Positions 7,571 through 55,029 of a DNA stretch of 64,000 nt are shown here, in pieces; position 1 is the first letter of the stretch; each line of letters opens with the position of its first letter. Under the pieces are notes generated by a model that searched no databases, was not told the DNA's origin, and saw only the letters and a list, made by a program, of their open reading frames with translations. The position numbers and the translations under genes were made by a program. The stretch is from a virus (taxonomy: Duplodnaviria; Caudoviricetes). The stretch covers positions 53,328 through 117,327 of IMG/VR virus record IMGVR_UViG_3300037067_011041; one strand, given 5' to 3'.

Positions 7571-7643
7571 TGTGCGGTAGCTCAACCGGTAGAGCAACAG
7601 ATTGTTAATCTGTGGAGTGTAGGTTCAAATCCTACCCGCGCAG
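7571..7643 (+). tRNA. tRNA-Asn(GTT)
   Basis: full cloverleaf: acceptor TGTGCGG/CCGCGCA, D arm GCTC/GAGC, ACAGA-TTGTTAA-TCTGT, GTAGG-TTCAAAT-CCTAC; CCA not encoded. Confidence 0.92.
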
Positions 7644-7645
7644 CT

Positions 7646-8462: not shown

Positions 8463-8534
8463 AGTGGACGGGAGGCAAGGCGTCTTGCGGGCCTCATAAG
8501 CCCGTAGAGGTGGGTTCGATTCCCACGTCCACAA
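8463..8534 (+). tRNA. tRNA-Met(CAT), atypical, initiator-like
   Basis: A1:A72 mismatch, GTGGAC/GTCCAC, CGGGC-CTCATAA-GCCCG, GTGGG-TTCGATT-CCCAC; D loop only about 5 nt. Confidence 0.75.
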
Positions 8535-8536
8535 CT

Positions 8537-28456: not shown

Positions 28457-28943
28457 CAATGAAATCCGCATGTTGATGCGTTCAGCCTATGGGGCGGCCA
28501 TAAACTCTGATGACAGGGTCACCAAAAACGGAGCCGCCATCATCAACAGTGGAGGAGACGTCCTGGTTCGCGGTTGGAACCATTTTGTCGACGGCTGGGG
28601 CGACGATGAAGCCCACCATGAGAGGCCGTTCAAATACAGTGTGACAGAGCACGCTGAAAGGGACGTGATCTATAAAGCTGCCAACGTTGGCGTTGCATGT
28701 CAAGGAAAAACCATGATAGCCAACTGGGTTGCTTGCCCTGAATGTGCAAGAGCCATCAAATTGGCCGGTATCAAGCTTGTGATCTGTCACAAGGAATGCA
28801 TGGATAGGACGCCCGATAGATGGGCCGAGATGGTAGCCCTTGGATTGTCGATACTAAAGAAGGGCGGCGTGGAACTCGTTCAATGGAGCGGCAAGGTTGA
28901 CCGAGTACAGAACCTTAACAACGGAGAGATCTGGGAACCATGA
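28446..28943 (+). CDS. dCMP deaminase
   Basis: GWN, HAE, CPECARAI..AGI. Confidence 0.9.
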   Translation: MLYSNEIRMLMRSAYGAAINSDDRVTKNGAAIINSGGDVLVRGWNHFVDGWGDDEAHHERPFKYSVTEHAERDVIYKAANVGVACQGKTMIANWVACPECARAIKLAGIKLVICHKECMDRTPDRWAEMVALGLSILKKGGVELVQWSGKVDRVQNLNNGEIWEP

Positions 28944-32671: not shown

Positions 32672-33238
32672 TTACTTTACTCGAAAGACGACTTCGCCGT
32701 CTTCCCCGGCCCCCGTGTAAAGTTCTTCGAGTTTTGATCTTGGCAAATCGATCTCAAGATTCTTATCCAGACCGATGTAGATCAGTTCCGAATCTGGGTG
32801 AATCATATATGTCAAGTCTGAAACCCAGCCGCTGTGATCCGGTCGCGCTACCACGATAAGCTTGTCTGGTTCGCGCAAAAGGCTAACACGCTGGGCTGGC
32901 ATCGGCAGAAGGAAGTTGACACATTCCCTATGCACCTCTTCATTCGGCCGTGGCTCAACGGCCACTAGCTTGACTCCTCGTTTCACCAACGCTTTGGAAA
33001 ACACACACTGACCGGCCCCGACTTCGATCGTGACCCGCTCACCTGCATAGTCAGCAAACCAATCGCAGAATTGCGGGTACGGCTCAAAGTGAGTGACAAC
33101 GTTTGGTGGCAGCAGGTTGAACATATTGAGATCAAGCATCACAGTCTCCAGATCCAAATGGTCCCTATCTTCACGACGCGGCCGTCGACGATTTTTATAC
33201 TGGTCCAACCGGCGATGGCGTCTTCGTATTTCATGCAA
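32672..33238 (-). CDS. class I SAM-dependent methyltransferase-like protein
   Basis: IEVGAGQ motif I, AVEP. Confidence 0.6.
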   Translation of the reverse strand: MHEIRRRHRRLDQYKNRRRPRREDRDHLDLETVMLDLNMFNLLPPNVVTHFEPYPQFCDWFADYAGERVTIEVGAGQCVFSKALVKRGVKLVAVEPRPNEEVHRECVNFLLPMPAQRVSLLREPDKLIVVARPDHSGWVSDLTYMIHPDSELIYIGLDKNLEIDLPRSKLEELYTGAGEDGEVVFRVK

Positions 33239-33851
33239 ACGCTTTTGCTTCGTCAGGGGTCAGGTAGCCGGAGCCACCACATAGGCCGCACACTTGCCCC
33301 GTGAATTTGCTGATTTTCGTTGTTTCGCAGTCTGGGCAGTCGACTCGAACTTCGCAAGCGAAACGTTCGTCGCAGCATGTGTGGCGAAATTCTTGATCGT
33401 CACAGCGTTGCCACGGCAACTCGGTAACCACCGTCAGCAGTCTCCGTGCGTTTCGTCCGTCAAGATGAATGAAGCCTACAGGAATACCGGGGAAGTCTCC
33501 TCCGTCCCACCAGATGCCGCTGGTGACGCCGCGATAAACCATTGCCCCTTCGAGATCCGCTACACCCCGATCGATGCTTCCGACTATCACAAGGCCGCTG
33601 CCAAGTTCCTTGTACTGCTCGAAAGCGCTTTCAGCGTGCTTCTCAAGGCTGCCGATCAGTCCTTTGTTCCGGTCGCACCACCATGTGCTGCTGGGCTTGT
33701 ATGCGTAAGAGTAAAGATGCGCCTGGATCGATTTGCCATCTAGCCGTACTAGTTGACGCCTCTTCCGCATTGTATAGACATACACGCCCATTTGTTTTGT
33801 ATCCCTGTCCTTGAAAGTAGTCTTCGATAAGTAGGTAAAGAAGGTCTTCAC
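33231..33851 (-). CDS. hypothetical protein with a C-terminal DnaJ-type Zn finger
   Basis: CPDC...CGLCGGSG; true start probably MGVYVY. Confidence 0.55.
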   Translation of the reverse strand: MKTFFTYLSKTTFKDRDTKQMGVYVYTMRKRRQLVRLDGKSIQAHLYSYAYKPSSTWWCDRNKGLIGSLEKHAESAFEQYKELGSGLVIVGSIDRGVADLEGAMVYRGVTSGIWWDGGDFPGIPVGFIHLDGRNARRLLTVVTELPWQRCDDQEFRHTCCDERFACEVRVDCPDCETTKISKFTGQVCGLCGGSGYLTPDEAKAFA

Positions 33852-34544
33852 GTAAAGAGCGTTGAAAATTGCTACATCGCTGAAGGTCTACGCACACCCA
33901 GAACATGAGGGAGTCGCTCAAAACCTTCGTATCGGCCCCTTGTTGTTTCAGTTGCCAGACAACCGGGGCCAGCTTGCTCATAAGCGATTGCCACCGATCG
34001 TGTTCTTGCTCCTCGACATCCATGAGATGCCACGCCACGCCGCAGTACGGGTCGCATTCAACATATTGACGCTCATCAAACCAGTCGCTGATGATTGTGC
34101 GAAACGTAGTCAGGTCAACGTGGCTCATTGGTGCCCTACAGTTTGAACGAGGTTATAGCATACTCGGTTTTGCAACACACGCAATAGACGAGTACGCGGG
34201 TCTCACCGACGCCTGGGGTCGCGAGTATCTCTCTAAACCGGTCTCTCAGTCCGTCACCTTCTTCGTCCAAAACGGCCTCGAATTTGCTGTGTGCGCCGCA
34301 GTAAGGACAGGAGACGTAAAATGCAAGGCTGACGTGGGCGGCTACTTCTTTCATCGCCGCTCTCTCAACTCGGCCATTACGCCAGAAACCAGTGTGCACA
34401 CCCCGTTCCAAATACAGAAGCCTGCTGATGCCCCCACGGCCCCTGACCAACCGCATTGTGCTCCAACAATGGTGACGGCAAGAAGATGAAAAGGGGAAAT
34501 CTTCCAGTAGAACAGTTCGTTGTTACCCAGGCGTTCTTTCATAG

Positions 34545-34841
34545 TTACCACTCGTTTATCTCGGGTCCGTAAGCAGTGAACCGCATTGGTTCACCAGTCA
34601 ACTTCAGTTCGTCGTCCCACACTTCAAGGAACTCATCTAGCGGACGCAGGTAGGCCCGCTCGTCAGTTCCAAGACTTTCAACTTCTCCTTTCACAGAGAA
34701 GGTAGCCATCCCCATTGCCATGATGAACTCATCGAGGCACGCGTGCTCTTGCAAAATCTTGCGGGCAAGTCGCCTGACTTCCGCCAAGGCCAACTCTGTT
34801 GCCTTGTTGAAGTGAAATTCGATCTGCTTGTTGATTCGCAT
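34545..34841 (-). CDS. hypothetical protein
   Basis: GGAG RBS; follows the mini-tmRNA. Confidence 0.6.
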   Translation of the reverse strand: MRINKQIEFHFNKATELALAEVRRLARKILQEHACLDEFIMAMGMATFSVKGEVESLGTDERAYLRPLDEFLEVWDDELKLTGEPMRFTAYGPEINEW

Positions 34842-34852
34842 CTTCTCTCCAG

Positions 34853-34950
34853 TGGAGGTGTCCGGAGTCGAACCGGAATCCTAGCCGTACTCGCTACTTA
34901 CACATGGGCCTTTTCGCTCAAACGCACGGTAGTCGAAACCTGTCACCCCC
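34853..34950 (-). ncRNA. minimal tmRNA-like RNA (tRNA-like domain only, 98 nt)
   Basis: 5' GGGGGTG-ACAGGTTTCGAC and 3' GAT-TCCGG-TTCGACT-CCGGA-CACCTCC-A; G3:U70 Ala identity; stemless D loop; about 50-nt insert. Confidence 0.82.
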
Positions 34951-35362
34951 GGCTACTCTCTGATTCGTTATTTTCGTCCCAGTTGACGTCTTCCCAGAGA
35001 CAGACATCATCTTTGCTGCCTGATTGGCACATGTCTTCGAGCAACTTGTGCTTGAAGATAGTGATGTAGATCGTGTACCTGCTGCATTCTGAGGCTACAC
35101 AGTTATCCTTGAAGTCTTCTGGCAGGCTTAGTTGAATCTCGTTGAATCCAATCCAGATCGATTGGACGCCCTCATCAGTTGCTCCGCCGTAAGCCGACAC
35201 CGGCTTGTTCTTCGTTCGCATGTTCACGTGAAGCACGATGACGTTTTCGTCCCGGCACAGAAGACAGATGTCTTCAATGTGCCGCCGCTCGTCATGGTAC
35301 TTCACGTTGATACCGACACTATTGATGGTGTATCCTCGGTATGTTACGGGCTCGTTGTACAT
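34943..35362 (-). CDS. hypothetical protein
   Basis: 139-aa ORF; stop lies inside the tmRNA-like 5' end. Confidence 0.6.
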   Translation of the reverse strand: MYNEPVTYRGYTINSVGINVKYHDERRHIEDICLLCRDENVIVLHVNMRTKNKPVSAYGGATDEGVQSIWIGFNEIQLSLPEDFKDNCVASECSRYTIYITIFKHKLLEDMCQSGSKDDVCLWEDVNWDENNESESSRG

Positions 35363-35875
35363 CAGTCTTTCCTGCCGCTCTTAATCAGCTTCTCTGCGAA
35401 GTCGGACAGGTCCAAAAGGCAGTTGTACACTTCGTGGTAACCGCCAGAGTGCCCTTGTTCCCATGCATAACACTGGAGAGTAAGGATGCCCTCCGCATCG
35501 AGAAACTCGTCATAGCCGATGTCTTCGCGACAATCTGCCCAAAACTTGGCCTCCAGCCTGTGTTCTTCCTCATTGTAAGGCTTGACGGCTTCTTTGAACC
35601 AGTCGCGTACACGGGCCGGCACCGCCGCCAGCAGATCTTCACGCTCTTGGCCGGTAAGCCGCTGACTGTTGATATAGTCTATCAAACCGGCTTTGTACGC
35701 GACGCGGTCCGGATATGGAACGTTGTTTTTGTAGTCGTCGAAGTTCATTTCGTTTTCCTGTTCACTCGCTCTCTGATAGGCCGCATTGCCTCGTGCAGGC
35801 ATGCCATGTGATACACCTTGGCATTCCCGCTGGCTTTGATTGGCTTCTTACAGATGGGACACTTGGTCATTTTCA

Positions 35876-36544
35876 TCACAGTAGAATCGTGGTGCTGATT
35901 CCGATGGCGGCCAACATCTCCGCTTCTTCTTTAAGTGTAGCACACGGTTTGCATTTGTCAAGCCAATCCGGCCCGATTTCTTTACAAAGCATGTCATACC
36001 AAGTTGAACCGGCATCAAACCGTTCGCCGTCAGATGGCCGGAACATTGCATGGTGTCCATCGCCGTCGGCCGGGTTCCACCCAGTCAGAAGCACCTTCCT
36101 GCCATCTTCCCTGGTGTACAAACGGCACAAAGTGACAAGGGTCCGATGCCGCCTGTACTTGTCATCCTCATTGTGGATGGCGGTGACGACGAAGTACGGG
36201 ATGGCGTTGTCCACGTGGTCGAAGTGACTTGACGACTTGCTGTTGGCTCTCTGGACGAATGCCAACCACGGGTCACCGGGCTGGATGTCGTAGCTGTATC
36301 GCTCCCCAGGCACAACGACGATGTCGCCAACCTTGATGCGAGTCTCATACGGCTGGTCTCGGCAAGCCTCAGCCTCTTCCAGCGTGTCATACGACTTACC
36401 ACAAACAGGGCAGGAATATCTGATAGGCTGATCTTGGCTGATGAGTTTCGCCGCGTCTTTGCCGTATGCGTACCTCTTGGTCTTCCAGCTTCCTTCCTTG
36501 TAGATCTGGCATTCTTTGACGATTTTGGCGATATTGATGTCCAT
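35876..36544 (-). CDS. hypothetical protein with a C2H2/C2C-like motif
   Basis: CPVCGKSYDTLEEAEAC; GGAGG RBS. Confidence 0.65.
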   Translation of the reverse strand: MDINIAKIVKECQIYKEGSWKTKRYAYGKDAAKLISQDQPIRYSCPVCGKSYDTLEEAEACRDQPYETRIKVGDIVVVPGERYSYDIQPGDPWLAFVQRANSKSSSHFDHVDNAIPYFVVTAIHNEDDKYRRHRTLVTLCRLYTREDGRKVLLTGWNPADGDGHHAMFRPSDGERFDAGSTWYDMLCKEIGPDWLDKCKPCATLKEEAEMLAAIGISTTILL

Positions 36545-37229
36545 CAGTTTCCTCCCTTGAGGGCGTCGCGTTCACGCCGGGTGGCTTCAAGGTCGAACAC
36601 GAGGTAGCTCACGTCTAGCCGAAGCTGACTGAGCGTTTCTTTGACGAGATTCAGTATACGAAGACGTTCCTGGTCGGTGTCCCGGATGACTTCCGCAGCG
36701 AACCGCACATTCGGGTCGCTGTGTCGCAGAAGCATTTCCATAGCTTGGTCTTTGTTCATTCCCATCCTTTCCCTCTTGTCCAGCAGCAAACGATTCCACC
36801 GTCATGAATGTTGTCGCAGTAGAGACGTTCCAGTTCATCCAGTTGCTTTGACTCCACGTCCTTGCCGTCTCGCATGTAGTAGTTTTTGTAGCATCCCCAC
36901 ATGACTTCGTCCAAGCCCATTCTCTCAGCGATCTCCACGGCTCTGGCTAGGATCGCTTTTTCTGCTTCGTCCTTTGCCTGTTCGATCTTATCGACGATCG
37001 CTTGCAGTTCTTTCGTAATCATTTCAACCTTTCGTTCACCAATGAGATGAAAGCGTCCCGCTCGCTGTCGTCCAGGAATATCTTCCAGGCCATTGTCAGC
37101 CGCAAGTCGCACATCAAGTCGAGATCCTTGCACACGGTGCCGACCGCTAACTTCAGATCGGTAATCCCACGCCTGTGAGGAATGGTAAAGTGTCTTGGGC
37201 CTAGAATCATCGTTGTCTCCCGATACTAA

Positions 37230-52583: not shown

Positions 52584-53509
52584 AGTTTGCTCGCCACAAG
52601 GTTGTTGAAATCGACAAGCCGTTGATTGCATCCATACAGGCAATTTCCGCACTTCCTGACGCCGATTCCCTTAATACCATCCCGGTATAGATGCGAACAG
52701 GCGAATTCCTCACCACTCGGGCTGATAACCCGCTCACTCATCGATAGATAGCAAGGCTGAGAAAGGTCGTTGTCTGGAAACCTAACACCGGCGATAAGCC
52801 GAAGCTTGTTTCCGATGGTCTCCTTGAAAAGGGCAAGCGATTCCTTGTCCATGGCGGACTCCATCTTCGGCACGATGCTCTCGAAGAAATCATCGATATG
52901 CTTCGGCTGGAACACGAATCGCGGGTGTGTGCCTTTGTACACGCTGAAAAACAACGCGTACAGATGAGGAAACACCACGTTGGCAAACTGAATGAATCGC
53001 GGGGCGTCCCGATAGTTCTCGGCCGGCAAAGTGTAGGTGATGGACGTTACCGTTTGCTCGGATGCTCGCTGGATGTTTTGGCAAACACGCCTCCAGGCCG
53101 TGCGGCCGACAAGGTTGTCCCAGTAGACTTCGTTGTCCGAATCCAAAGACACCTTGAGGCGTTTGACGTGTGCCGCTGGCGGCATGATAAACGCGTTTGT
53201 GTTCAGGTGGAACCGGTACTTCTCGCTGCATGATTTGATGAGCGGGTACAGCCAAGGTACGATGGATGGCTCACCTCCGGTGATATGGATGATTGCCGTG
53301 TCACCATACTTTGCAAGCGCGTCCTCAAATCGCTTCTTGGACAAAGTGGTTGGAGTCTGCTTCACGTTGCAGTAGTCACAACGAAAGTTGCATCCCTCAG
53401 TAATGAACACCGCTACCCTGCGTACTGGCGGGTTCTTACCGGCCGCCAAACAATCGACGGTCTCCTTTGCCCTGAGTTCAAAGTCGTCCCAATACAATGA
53501 GTGTCTCAT
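52580..53509 (-). CDS. radical SAM protein with a C-terminal SPASM/twitch-like Cys cluster
   Basis: CNFRCDYC, TGGEP, NTN, SLD; C...C...CGNC.YGC. Confidence 0.9.
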   Translation of the reverse strand: MRHSLYWDDFELRAKETVDCLAAGKNPPVRRVAVFITEGCNFRCDYCNVKQTPTTLSKKRFEDALAKYGDTAIIHITGGEPSIVPWLYPLIKSCSEKYRFHLNTNAFIMPPAAHVKRLKVSLDSDNEVYWDNLVGRTAWRRVCQNIQRASEQTVTSITYTLPAENYRDAPRFIQFANVVFPHLYALFFSVYKGTHPRFVFQPKHIDDFFESIVPKMESAMDKESLALFKETIGNKLRLIAGVRFPDNDLSQPCYLSMSERVISPSGEEFACSHLYRDGIKGIGVRKCGNCLYGCNQRLVDFNNLVASKL

Positions 53510-54390: not shown

Positions 54391-54955
54391 ATAGTAATTC
54401 GGAATTATTCCCGGCCGACTTCGGCACCCATCGTATGCTAGTTGATCTTGAGTTGTTTGTTGATGGCTTCAAGTTGCGCTTCGATCTCTGCCTTCTCTTG
54501 CAGTAGCTTTGCGCGGGTGTTGGCATAGCCTGCCGGGATGCGTGTCGCCTTAACTTCCGACAGCTTCAGGCCATAGCCCTTGTTATCGTCGAAGAAAGCG
54601 CGAATATCGTTCTCGGCCCCGATCGCGTAGCCAAGGAGGTACGGCGGGCCGTTGCTTTGCGTACCGCTGACAGCCACGATTGTCTCTTGGGCCCTCAGCT
54701 TCATCCGTTTGATCTCGCTCACAAGGTCGTAGACAAGGCGATGAGGCTTGTCTTTCCACGTGTCGGCTTGCTCACCGATGCCAGACGGACCTAGTTTGTA
54801 GTCCTCAAGTTCTTTGTCGGTCATGAGCGGTCGCTCCTGCTCTCGCCGAAGAAATTCTGCTTCCTGCCTTTTTCGCTCTTGCATTCTGCAATCCTGTTGA
54901 TATTGGTGGAAGGCACCTGATTCTTCTGGATATGAGACCATTTCAGTTCTCCTAG

Positions 54956-55029
54956 TAGCTTGGGTGGGAGTCGAACCCACAGCATTCCTGGTTCTAAGCC
55001 AAGATGGTCTGCCTATTGCCTACCAAGCT
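54956..55029 (-). tRNA. tRNA-Leu(TAG) with a short variable loop
   Basis: AGCTTGG/CCAAGCT, CTTGG-CTTAGAA-CCAGG, GTGGG-TTCGACT-CCCAC. Confidence 0.85.

Follow-up and report, generated by a model that had tools for sequence, protein, structure and literature searches.

A tag-less tmRNA of the DS6A class, with an enlarged and apparently constrained centre, in a 117-kb phage genome

Nearly all bacteria use trans-translation, and the pathway is a drug target. The closest described relative of the RNA studied here is the 80-nt 'TLD only' tmRNA (TLD, tRNA-like domain) of mycobacteriophage DS6A (JN698994 28478-28557, tmID 11587; Mao et al. 2009, as cited in PMC4131195 and PMC11915505). As these two papers relate, a TLD-only RNA of the DS6A kind is a strong inhibitor of tmRNA in E. 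coli, chargeable or not, and may act by titrating SmpB. For TLD-only tmRNAs as a class, the literature already offers both a decoy role and tag-free rescue. A truncated, TLD-only tmRNA also accepts peptidyl transfer in vitro (Shimizu and Ueda 2006, as cited in PMC3895274).

The window analysed here is a stretch of 64,000 nt, positions 53,328 to 117,327 of the IMG/VR virus record IMGVR_UViG_3300037067_011041. This record is 117,327 bp long and 100% complete by CheckV, and the genes around the RNA belong to PHROG families, which bears out the first-pass annotation, made from the letters alone, in calling the RNA phage-borne. The RNA, 98 nt on the minus strand, matches the Rfam tmRNA model RF00023 at 34850-34950(-) with 49.3 bits, against a gathering score of 47 (E 1e-17). 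The match spans model positions 1-374, with 46 nt replacing 318 model positions, and only the tRNA-like domain contributes to its score. A tmRNA-specific pattern has one match in the window and none in 100 shuffles, and no other sequence in the 117,327-bp record is tmRNA-like. ARAGORN called no tmRNA at 34853-34950, because that tool expects a tag frame and the 98-nt RNA has none. The first-pass annotation had described a tmRNA homologue cut down to the tRNA-like domain and a helix-2 stub, and had named Infernal and ARAGORN as ways of checking it; Infernal agrees with the description, whereas ARAGORN is silent.

Every part of the tRNA-like domain quoted in that description is present (Table 1): a 7-bp acceptor stem with G3:U70, the A discriminator, the stemless D loop and the T arm. 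The D-loop analogue reads A-CAGGUUUCGAC / GGUUUCGAC, without a stem, and is aligned by cmscan to the tmRNA consensus GAucuGGaUUCGAC. The P2-like helix has 9 bp and one bulged C and closes 33 nt, rather than the ~25 nt first estimated for this loop. Only these 33 nt lie inside P2, and there is no resume codon, tag ORF or PK1-PK4 pseudoknot ring. Within this centre, GCGAAAAGG and CCCAUGUG align with the helix 2 and PK1 entry motifs of tmRNA. CCA is not encoded; ACUG comes after the acceptor stem. On paper, the centre could form an irregular helix with tandem G.A pairs (G32.A60 and A33.G59). The central fold is ambiguous, a two-hairpin alternative being equally stable (-29.8 vs -29.7 kcal/mol), and the MFE of the whole molecule, whose fold breaks the T arm, is no better than that of shuffles (z -0.39); thermodynamics alone is uninformative for this RNA.

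Table 1. Features of the mini-tmRNA locus in the window, and of related loci named in the text.
Feature	Coordinates	Strand	Details
Mini-tmRNA gene	34853..34950	-	98 nt, from G1 = 34950 to discriminator A = 34853
Acceptor stem, 5' strand GGGGGUG	34944..34950	-	RNA 1-7; G3 pairs with the U70-equivalent U95 (34856)
Stemless D-loop analogue ACAGGUUUCGA	34933..34943	-	RNA 8-18; SmpB/T-loop contact region of tmRNA
P2-like helix, 5' strand CUACCGUGC	34924..34932	-	RNA 19-27; pairs with RNA 61-70
Expanded central region	34891..34923	-	RNA 28-60; holds GCGAAAAGG, CCCAUGUG and the claimed micro-tag
P2-like helix, 3' strand GUACGG-C-UAG	34881..34890	-	RNA 61-70; C67 bulged
Linker GAU (with G70: GGAU)	34878..34880	-	U73 is C in the wastewater strain and L240 (family consensus GGAC)
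T arm UCCGG-UUCGACU-CCGGA	34861..34877	-	RNA 74-90; from sequence and cmscan alignment
Acceptor stem, 3' strand CACCUCC, and discriminator A	34853..34860	-	7-bp stem, G3:U70; from sequence
Upstream 139-aa ORF, function unknown	34943..35362	-	UGA stop = RNA positions 6-8
Downstream 98-aa gene, phrog_15407, function unknown	34545..34841	-	SD GGAGAG at 34845-34850, 3 nt past the discriminator
WhiB gene	L138:2908-3294		homologues in L003, L012, L014, L026, L066, L084, L132, L142, L143, L145, L155
Poribacteria mini-tmRNAs	G001:C1:4004650-4004735; G003:C1:846310-846395, 1999836-1999921		RF00023
Poribacteria full-length tmRNAs	G001:C1:1088239-1088595; G003:C1:1461776-1462134		RF00023

We are nearly certain that the 98-nt RNA is a functional tmRNA without a tag, encoded by the phage and belonging to the DS6A 'TLD-only' class. 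Like the DS6A RNA, it is phage-borne and intergenic and has a G3:U70 acceptor, A73, a stemless D-loop analogue, a P2 helix, an A-rich junction (CGAAAA), a four-base linker and a T arm, with neither tag frame nor pseudoknots. It differs in length (98 nt vs 80 nt), in its centre (a 9-bp helix plus 33 nt, vs a 5-bp helix and a 4-bp hairpin in DS6A) and in its loop motif, which is CAUGU where DS6A has the actinobacterial-type GCACG. The phages themselves are unrelated, that of the window having 117 kb, no integrase and no nucleotide match to GenBank phages. The first-pass annotation knew of no such RNA in a phage; with DS6A already in the literature (PMC4131195, PMC11915505), the tag-less phage mini-tmRNA is not a new kind, and the kind is common in phages.

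Other systems are alike in part. Standard one-piece tmRNA (SsrA, RF00023) has a homologous tRNA-like domain, and its helix-2 start and AAGG..CAUG align with those of the window RNA, which is without its PK1-PK4, resume codon, tag ORF and stop. The mitochondrial tmRNAs of jakobids and oomycetes (RF02544) resemble the window RNA in having an Ala-type tRNA-like domain and no mRNA-like region, with SmpB encoded elsewhere; unlike it, they are usually circularly permuted two-piece genes, of alphaproteobacterial descent. The likeness to jakobids drawn in the first-pass annotation holds by analogy and goes no further, as a search of the whole phage genome with RF02544 gives nothing at E<=10. The engineered TLD-only fragments of SmpB/EF-Tu biochemistry have an identical parts list, and with them the TLD alone is deliverable to stalled ribosomes and accepts peptide; unlike the window RNA, they are laboratory constructs, known in vitro only and not in infection.

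To define the family, public collections were searched for tmRNA-type 5' and T-arm sequences only 30-60 nt apart. This pattern matched 33 IMG/VR contigs, at least 119 metagenome contigs and 27 species-representative genome contigs, which together contain at least 112 distinct mini-tmRNAs, most of them 73-99 nt long and, with the longest and shortest relatives counted in, 71-115 nt. A covariance model, R1, was built on the first 27 mini-tmRNAs. It gives the window RNA 53.3 bits (E 1e-10), the lowest score among family members, and the DS6A RNA (28478-28557), which the pattern did not match, 55.6 bits. Among 94 distinct family sequences, paired cells make up 91.6%, whereas shuffles reach 65.9% and slid controls 45-57%; compensatory changes occur at 16 of 22 pairs, and the covariation score is 0.589, compared with 0.124 for shuffles and 0.07-0.11 for slid controls. 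P2 covaries at six of its six pairs and the T stem, paired in 100% of cells, at four of five, while the 3' acceptor strand pairs throughout; these helix figures belong to the wider family, as P2 and the expanded centre of the window's own lineage are without the sequence variation that gives covariation. The homologs with covarying helices that the first-pass annotation had proposed to look for in phage metagenomes are thus there, and the covariation is strong.

GG.UUCGAC was fixed by the pattern, and the invariance of the 5' half and T loop is largely a matter of ascertainment. The identity elements for alanine stand differently. The partner of G3 is U in 94/94 sequences and was not fixed by the database pattern, although parsing required a CTCC acceptor end; the pattern matches that failed parsing are false positives or still have G:U at the G3 pair. 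The discriminator, likewise free in the database pattern, is A in 94/94, as is the third linker base. A change of U70 to C would strengthen its pair, yet the U is invariant, which argues that alanylation itself is under selection. Taken together, the conserved Ala identity elements argue that charging, and hence ribosome delivery, may be selected, beyond any titration of SmpB. The junction after P2 is A-rich (NAAR), with A in 69/86, 63/85 and 50/83 at its successive positions. A stop codon after P2 as a built-in terminator was considered and rejected, as NAAR has U first in 30/86 only.

No conserved protein partner was found beside the RNA: the largest neighbour family, WhiB, which marks actinophage clades, occurs at 10 of ~79 distinct RNAs. 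In ~10 distinct marine-metagenome variants, the WhiB-family gene lies ~0.5 kb upstream of the mini-tmRNA. The WhiB neighbours suggest that many mini-tmRNA carriers are actinophages, like DS6A. The actinophage-type minis (DS6A and the WhiB-linked group) and the 3' region of the mycobacteriophage Kumao tmRNA have the GCACG loop, and the window RNA is of the CAUGU type.

The window RNA is a size outlier among mini-tmRNAs, and most family members have only 15-20 nt where it has its expanded centre. Other longer minis are found at L235:6873-6987 (115 nt), L238:8937-9043 (107 nt) and L239:761-863 (103 nt). The first two have the GCGAAAGGCCCAUGC core in common with the window RNA; the third is an 80-nt-type mini with a 24-nt extension of the inner hairpin. 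Weaker R1 matches lie near the first two, at 4560-4670 of L235 (27 bits) and at 9440-9513 of L238 (26.5 bits).

Mini-tmRNAs also occur in cells. Candidatus Poribacteria have chromosomal minis of ~83 nt that share with the window RNA the plan of TLD and P2, followed in their case by CGAAAG and a hairpin, and that score 58-70 bits with RF00023. Unlike the window RNA, they are cellular, lie beside ordinary chromosomal genes and coexist with a full-length tmRNA (177-198 bits). Poribacteria account for 22 of the 27 genome matches (L039-L065); their normal tmRNA is ~355 nt long, and one genome has two minis. Among the neighbours of these minis are genes for a PLP decarboxylase, found close to a mini in two genomes, and for a Na/Ca exchanger. 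The available part of the tmRNA database paper contains no mention of a mini-tmRNA for Poribacteria.

Aligning the centre of the window RNA with L235, L238, an 80-nt mini, L061 and the full-length Poribacteria tmRNAs reveals an invariant A.GG...CAUG block, which in the full-length tmRNAs lies at the helix-2/PK1 entry. A comparable motif, GCAUGUAG, is found at the 3' return of helix 2. The centre of the window RNA would accordingly be a fused helix-2 stub, and the RNA is most likely a one-piece tmRNA minus everything from the start of PK1 to the 3' strand of helix 2. A 99-nt sequence on a Pseudescherichia MAG contig (L061:4791-4889, DAMBQR010000027.1) is an E. coli-type ssrA from which all that lies between two CCGAGG repeats has been deleted. 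It could be a natural example of the one-step origin of a mini-tmRNA, or an assembly artefact. From this repeat-bounded deletion we infer that minis come about when the pseudoknot ring is lost through recombination-like deletion between short repeats on either side of it.

The window stretch recurs in groundwater, landfill and wastewater runs from several studies. The groundwater contig has the entire 98-nt RNA identical, and the landfill contig is identical over 34744-34920. The wastewater contig, from a strain ~97% identical, covers 34711-35060 and spans both gene junctions with no indel; the wastewater runs are labelled 'RNA-Seq' and probably hold DNA. The short form, recurring without indels in independent assemblies, is therefore not a misassembly, and the concern raised in the first-pass annotation, that a full-length tmRNA had been shortened here by deletion or misassembly, is not borne out. 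In the wastewater strain, one change falls inside the RNA (U73>C, in the linker), compared with 13 in the adjacent 297-nt ORF, and the RNA is well below the neutral expectation (Poisson P 5e-4 to 2e-5). Ten of the 13 ORF changes are at codon position 3, and the downstream 98-aa gene is therefore real.

A more distant relative (L240/L241) carries the same 98-nt RNA in the same place, although the downstream protein is 68% and its DNA 69% identical. The downstream ORF of L240 has 91 differences in 297 nt, 54 of them at third positions, whereas the RNA has three differences in 98 nt, at positions 9 (D-loop analogue), 73 (linker) and 84 (T loop). At ORF-like divergence, the chance of three or fewer changes in 98 nt is ~4e-12. 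All changes in the L240 and wastewater RNAs fall at family-variable positions. RNA 20-72 is identical in L240, so that 51 of 51 central nucleotides are kept (chance ~8e-9 at ORF-like divergence), and the centre is common letter for letter to the window, the wastewater strain and L240. High identity between the window and L240 starts and stops at the borders of the RNA, which favours selection over recent patch transfer; the 98-nt RNA would thus be under purifying selection in its lineage. Relatives of the downstream gene at 53-61% amino acid identity have no mini-tmRNA within 2.5-4 kb, and the RNA is therefore a lineage-specific accessory gene, dispensable for the phage lineage overall.

The enlarged centre (a 9-bp P2 plus 33 nt), which appears unusually constrained, is what is particular to the window. 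This sequence-invariant part probably folds into an irregular stub, like helix 2, that has its own role. No stretch of 12 nt or longer elsewhere in the phage genome is complementary to it; the only matches are two 11-mers, as expected by chance, and antisense targets in the phage genome were rejected. A 15-mer from the centre (42 IMG/VR matches) and the pattern TTCGAC...CGAAARGGCCCATG (2 matches) turned up nothing tmRNA-like, only chance matches.

The RNA occupies the gap between two minus-strand phage genes in a tightly packed operon. Its downstream neighbour, the 98-aa protein, has 46 homologues; its upstream neighbour ends inside the RNA itself. In 13 of 79 distinct loci (among L002-L184), the window included, a same-strand upstream ORF of at least 50 aa stops at the UGA inside GGGGNUGA, by far the commonest end point of upstream ORFs. 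Maturation of the 5' end by RNase P would leave the upstream mRNA non-stop in such cases. A comparable overlap of an ORF with tmRNA has been noted for Carsonella (PMC4131195). L240 lacks the overlap seen in the window, which is therefore read as following from the tight packing of the genes, perhaps with a side effect. On the strand of the RNA, the nearest consensus-like sigma-70 promoter lies ~1 kb upstream, at 35934-35961 (-); it reads TTGACA-16-TACACT and has an extended TG. No terminator-like site separates this promoter from the RNA, as would fit co-transcription followed by processing.

The complete phage genome encodes no SmpB, RF-1/ArfB, Pth, CCA-adding enzyme, RtcB or full-length tmRNA, and therefore the RNA must use host factors for maturation, charging and binding. 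Nor does the complete genome encode a tyrosine integrase (PF00589). None of its tRNA genes, which ARAGORN places at 7571-7644 (Asn-GTT), 8463-8535 (Met-CAT) and 54955-55029 (Leu-TAG), encodes CCA; the Rfam tRNA model scores the Asn and Leu genes above threshold and the Met-CAT gene below it. The surroundings are unlike those of known phages: window 33000-37000 has no nucleotide similarity to GenBank phages, the 98-nt RNA alone matches only T-arm/acceptor stretches of tRNAs and the full-length Kumao tmRNA, and the phage PolA is at most ~25% identical to that of isolates. Peptide patterns from the flanking proteins found no relatives in IMG/VR.

From the anatomy of the RNA and the published work on DS6A, we think it probable that the RNA acts as an Ala-charged, SmpB-dependent competitor of host tmRNA that prevents ssrA tagging. 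It would be transcribed within the minus-strand, early-type operon, excised by host RNase P and 3' trimming, and given its CCA by the host enzyme. Host AlaRS would then charge it with alanine by way of G3:U70 and A73, and host SmpB and EF-Tu would bind it, the phage having no SmpB of its own. So equipped, it could compete with host tmRNA for SmpB and stalled ribosomes. Lacking both a tag frame and a resume codon, it would leave the products of truncated messages without the ssrA degron, and the net effect would be to inhibit or bypass host trans-translation tagging during infection. Several observations count against a competitor. If SmpB titration alone were the function, the Ala identity elements need not persist; a 51-nt centre kept letter-perfect between diverged phages is more than a decoy needs; and the ambiguous central fold, the shuffle-like MFE (z -0.39) and the missing RNA beside more distant relatives of the flanking gene point the same way. 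Some phages, moreover, need host trans-translation rather than block it.

A different use of the same parts would be productive, tag-free rescue, in which the Ala-charged RNA would move into stalled ribosomes together with host SmpB and EF-Tu and accept the nascent chain, the resulting peptidyl-Ala-RNA then being freed by drop-off and Pth, by ArfB or in another round. Ribosomes would be freed and phage proteins spared proteolysis, under massive mRNA decay or an mRNA-cleaving defence. We regard this as the main rival, possible but doubtful. The invariance of G3:U70 and A73 in 94/94 sequences suggests that charging matters, TLD-only RNA accepts peptidyl transfer in vitro by the account in PMC3895274, and the mitochondrial tmRNAs that have no CDS are found together with imported SmpB and are believed to assist where mRNAs are incomplete (PMC11915505). 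Besides, the upstream mRNA would become non-stop on maturation of the RNA in the 13 of 79 loci with an overlap, the window's among them; that overlap, however, is lost in L240. The phage has no gene for a release factor, ArfB or Pth, there is no known route from peptidyl-TLD to release, and DS6A-like RNA inhibited tmRNA even when unchargeable, as related in PMC4131195. It is improbable that the tRNA-like domain is a mere scaffold, providing stability, processing or EF-Tu/SmpB delivery for an effector function of the invariant centre, for instance as the binding site of a phage or host protein or as a decoy for a nuclease. A centre kept at 51/51 positions between diverged phages, yet unlike that of other family members, would fit such a function, and tmRNA fragments are bound by a phage anti-CRISPR protein and by RNase R (PMC11662646); against it, the phage genome has no complement to the centre of 12 nt or longer, and no neighbouring protein is conserved across the family.

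Readings in which the RNA is something other than a working tag-less tmRNA fare worse than the competitor that we favour. A once full-length phage tmRNA now in decay, or an artefact of assembly or deletion, in either case with no present function, is very unlikely: the window RNA does have the lowest R1 score in the family (53.3 bits), its usual small inner hairpin is disrupted, and L061 shows that simple ssrA deletions occur, but the short form is found without indels in contigs from three other studies and in L240/L241, has three changes in 98 nt where the neighbouring ORF of L240 has diverged by 31%, and keeps all TLD helices and identity elements intact. The first-pass annotation had also seen a possible micro-tag, AKRPMCK, which would make the RNA a very small complete tmRNA on whose central loop the ribosome resumes after alanine transfer. 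The string GCG AAA AGG CCC AUG UGU AAG UAG is indeed present (RNA 34-57), in a region that is invariant in the window, the wastewater strain and L240, but its translation is without support, and we give this reading very little credence. The GCGAAA start is a conserved structural motif, shared with other minis and present untranslated at the helix-2 junction of an E. coli-type ssrA, and the frame begins 5' to the PK1-entry homologue, whereas canonical tags are found 3' of PK1, itself absent here. Most family members, with 15-20 nt at this place, have no possible frame, and stop codons after P2 are a by-product of NAAR, U being first in just 30/86. A 33-nt loop closed by 9 bp would not be threadable through the mRNA channel like the ~300-nt ring of tmRNA (judging from PMC8363625), and the invariance extends to all third positions, which indicates constraint on the RNA rather than on a peptide. 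Hardly credible, finally, is the idea that the RNA is an attP-type piece of host ssrA by which the phage integrates at the host's tmRNA gene. Integration at tmRNA genes is frequent, and 3' fragments of ssrA may be present in phages (PMC9004378, PMC11915505), but here the 5' acceptor strand and D-loop analogue are present as well as the 3' end, both strands covary across the family, the complete genome has no tyrosine integrase, and the RNA is located inside a tightly packed operon.

Widespread phage RNAs that keep just the AlaRS-, SmpB- and EF-Tu-binding part of tmRNA would be ready-made inhibitors or hijackers of trans-translation, and the mini-tmRNA family would be a natural experiment on the smallest RNA able to engage a stalled ribosome. 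The window RNA leaves the picture set by DS6A unchanged; as a larger variant with a strongly constrained centre, it hints that the class does more than titrate SmpB. A wider scheme, speculative and on balance unlikely, is that minis actively enter stalled ribosomes Ala-charged, for tag-free rescue or dead-end capture, rather than acting as passive SmpB sponges, that this lineage adds a sequence-specific helix-2-stub module, and that in some genomes excision of the RNA makes the upstream message non-stop, coupling the RNA to expression of its neighbour.

A further site of interest lies in the tRNA array of Streptomyces phages of ~125-131 kb. Phage Annadreamy (NC_048719 66147-66168) and its sisters have an unannotated, T-arm-like sequence between tRNA-Ile and tRNA-Ser (L036:1502-1522), which matches R1 only in part, with 15.7 bits.
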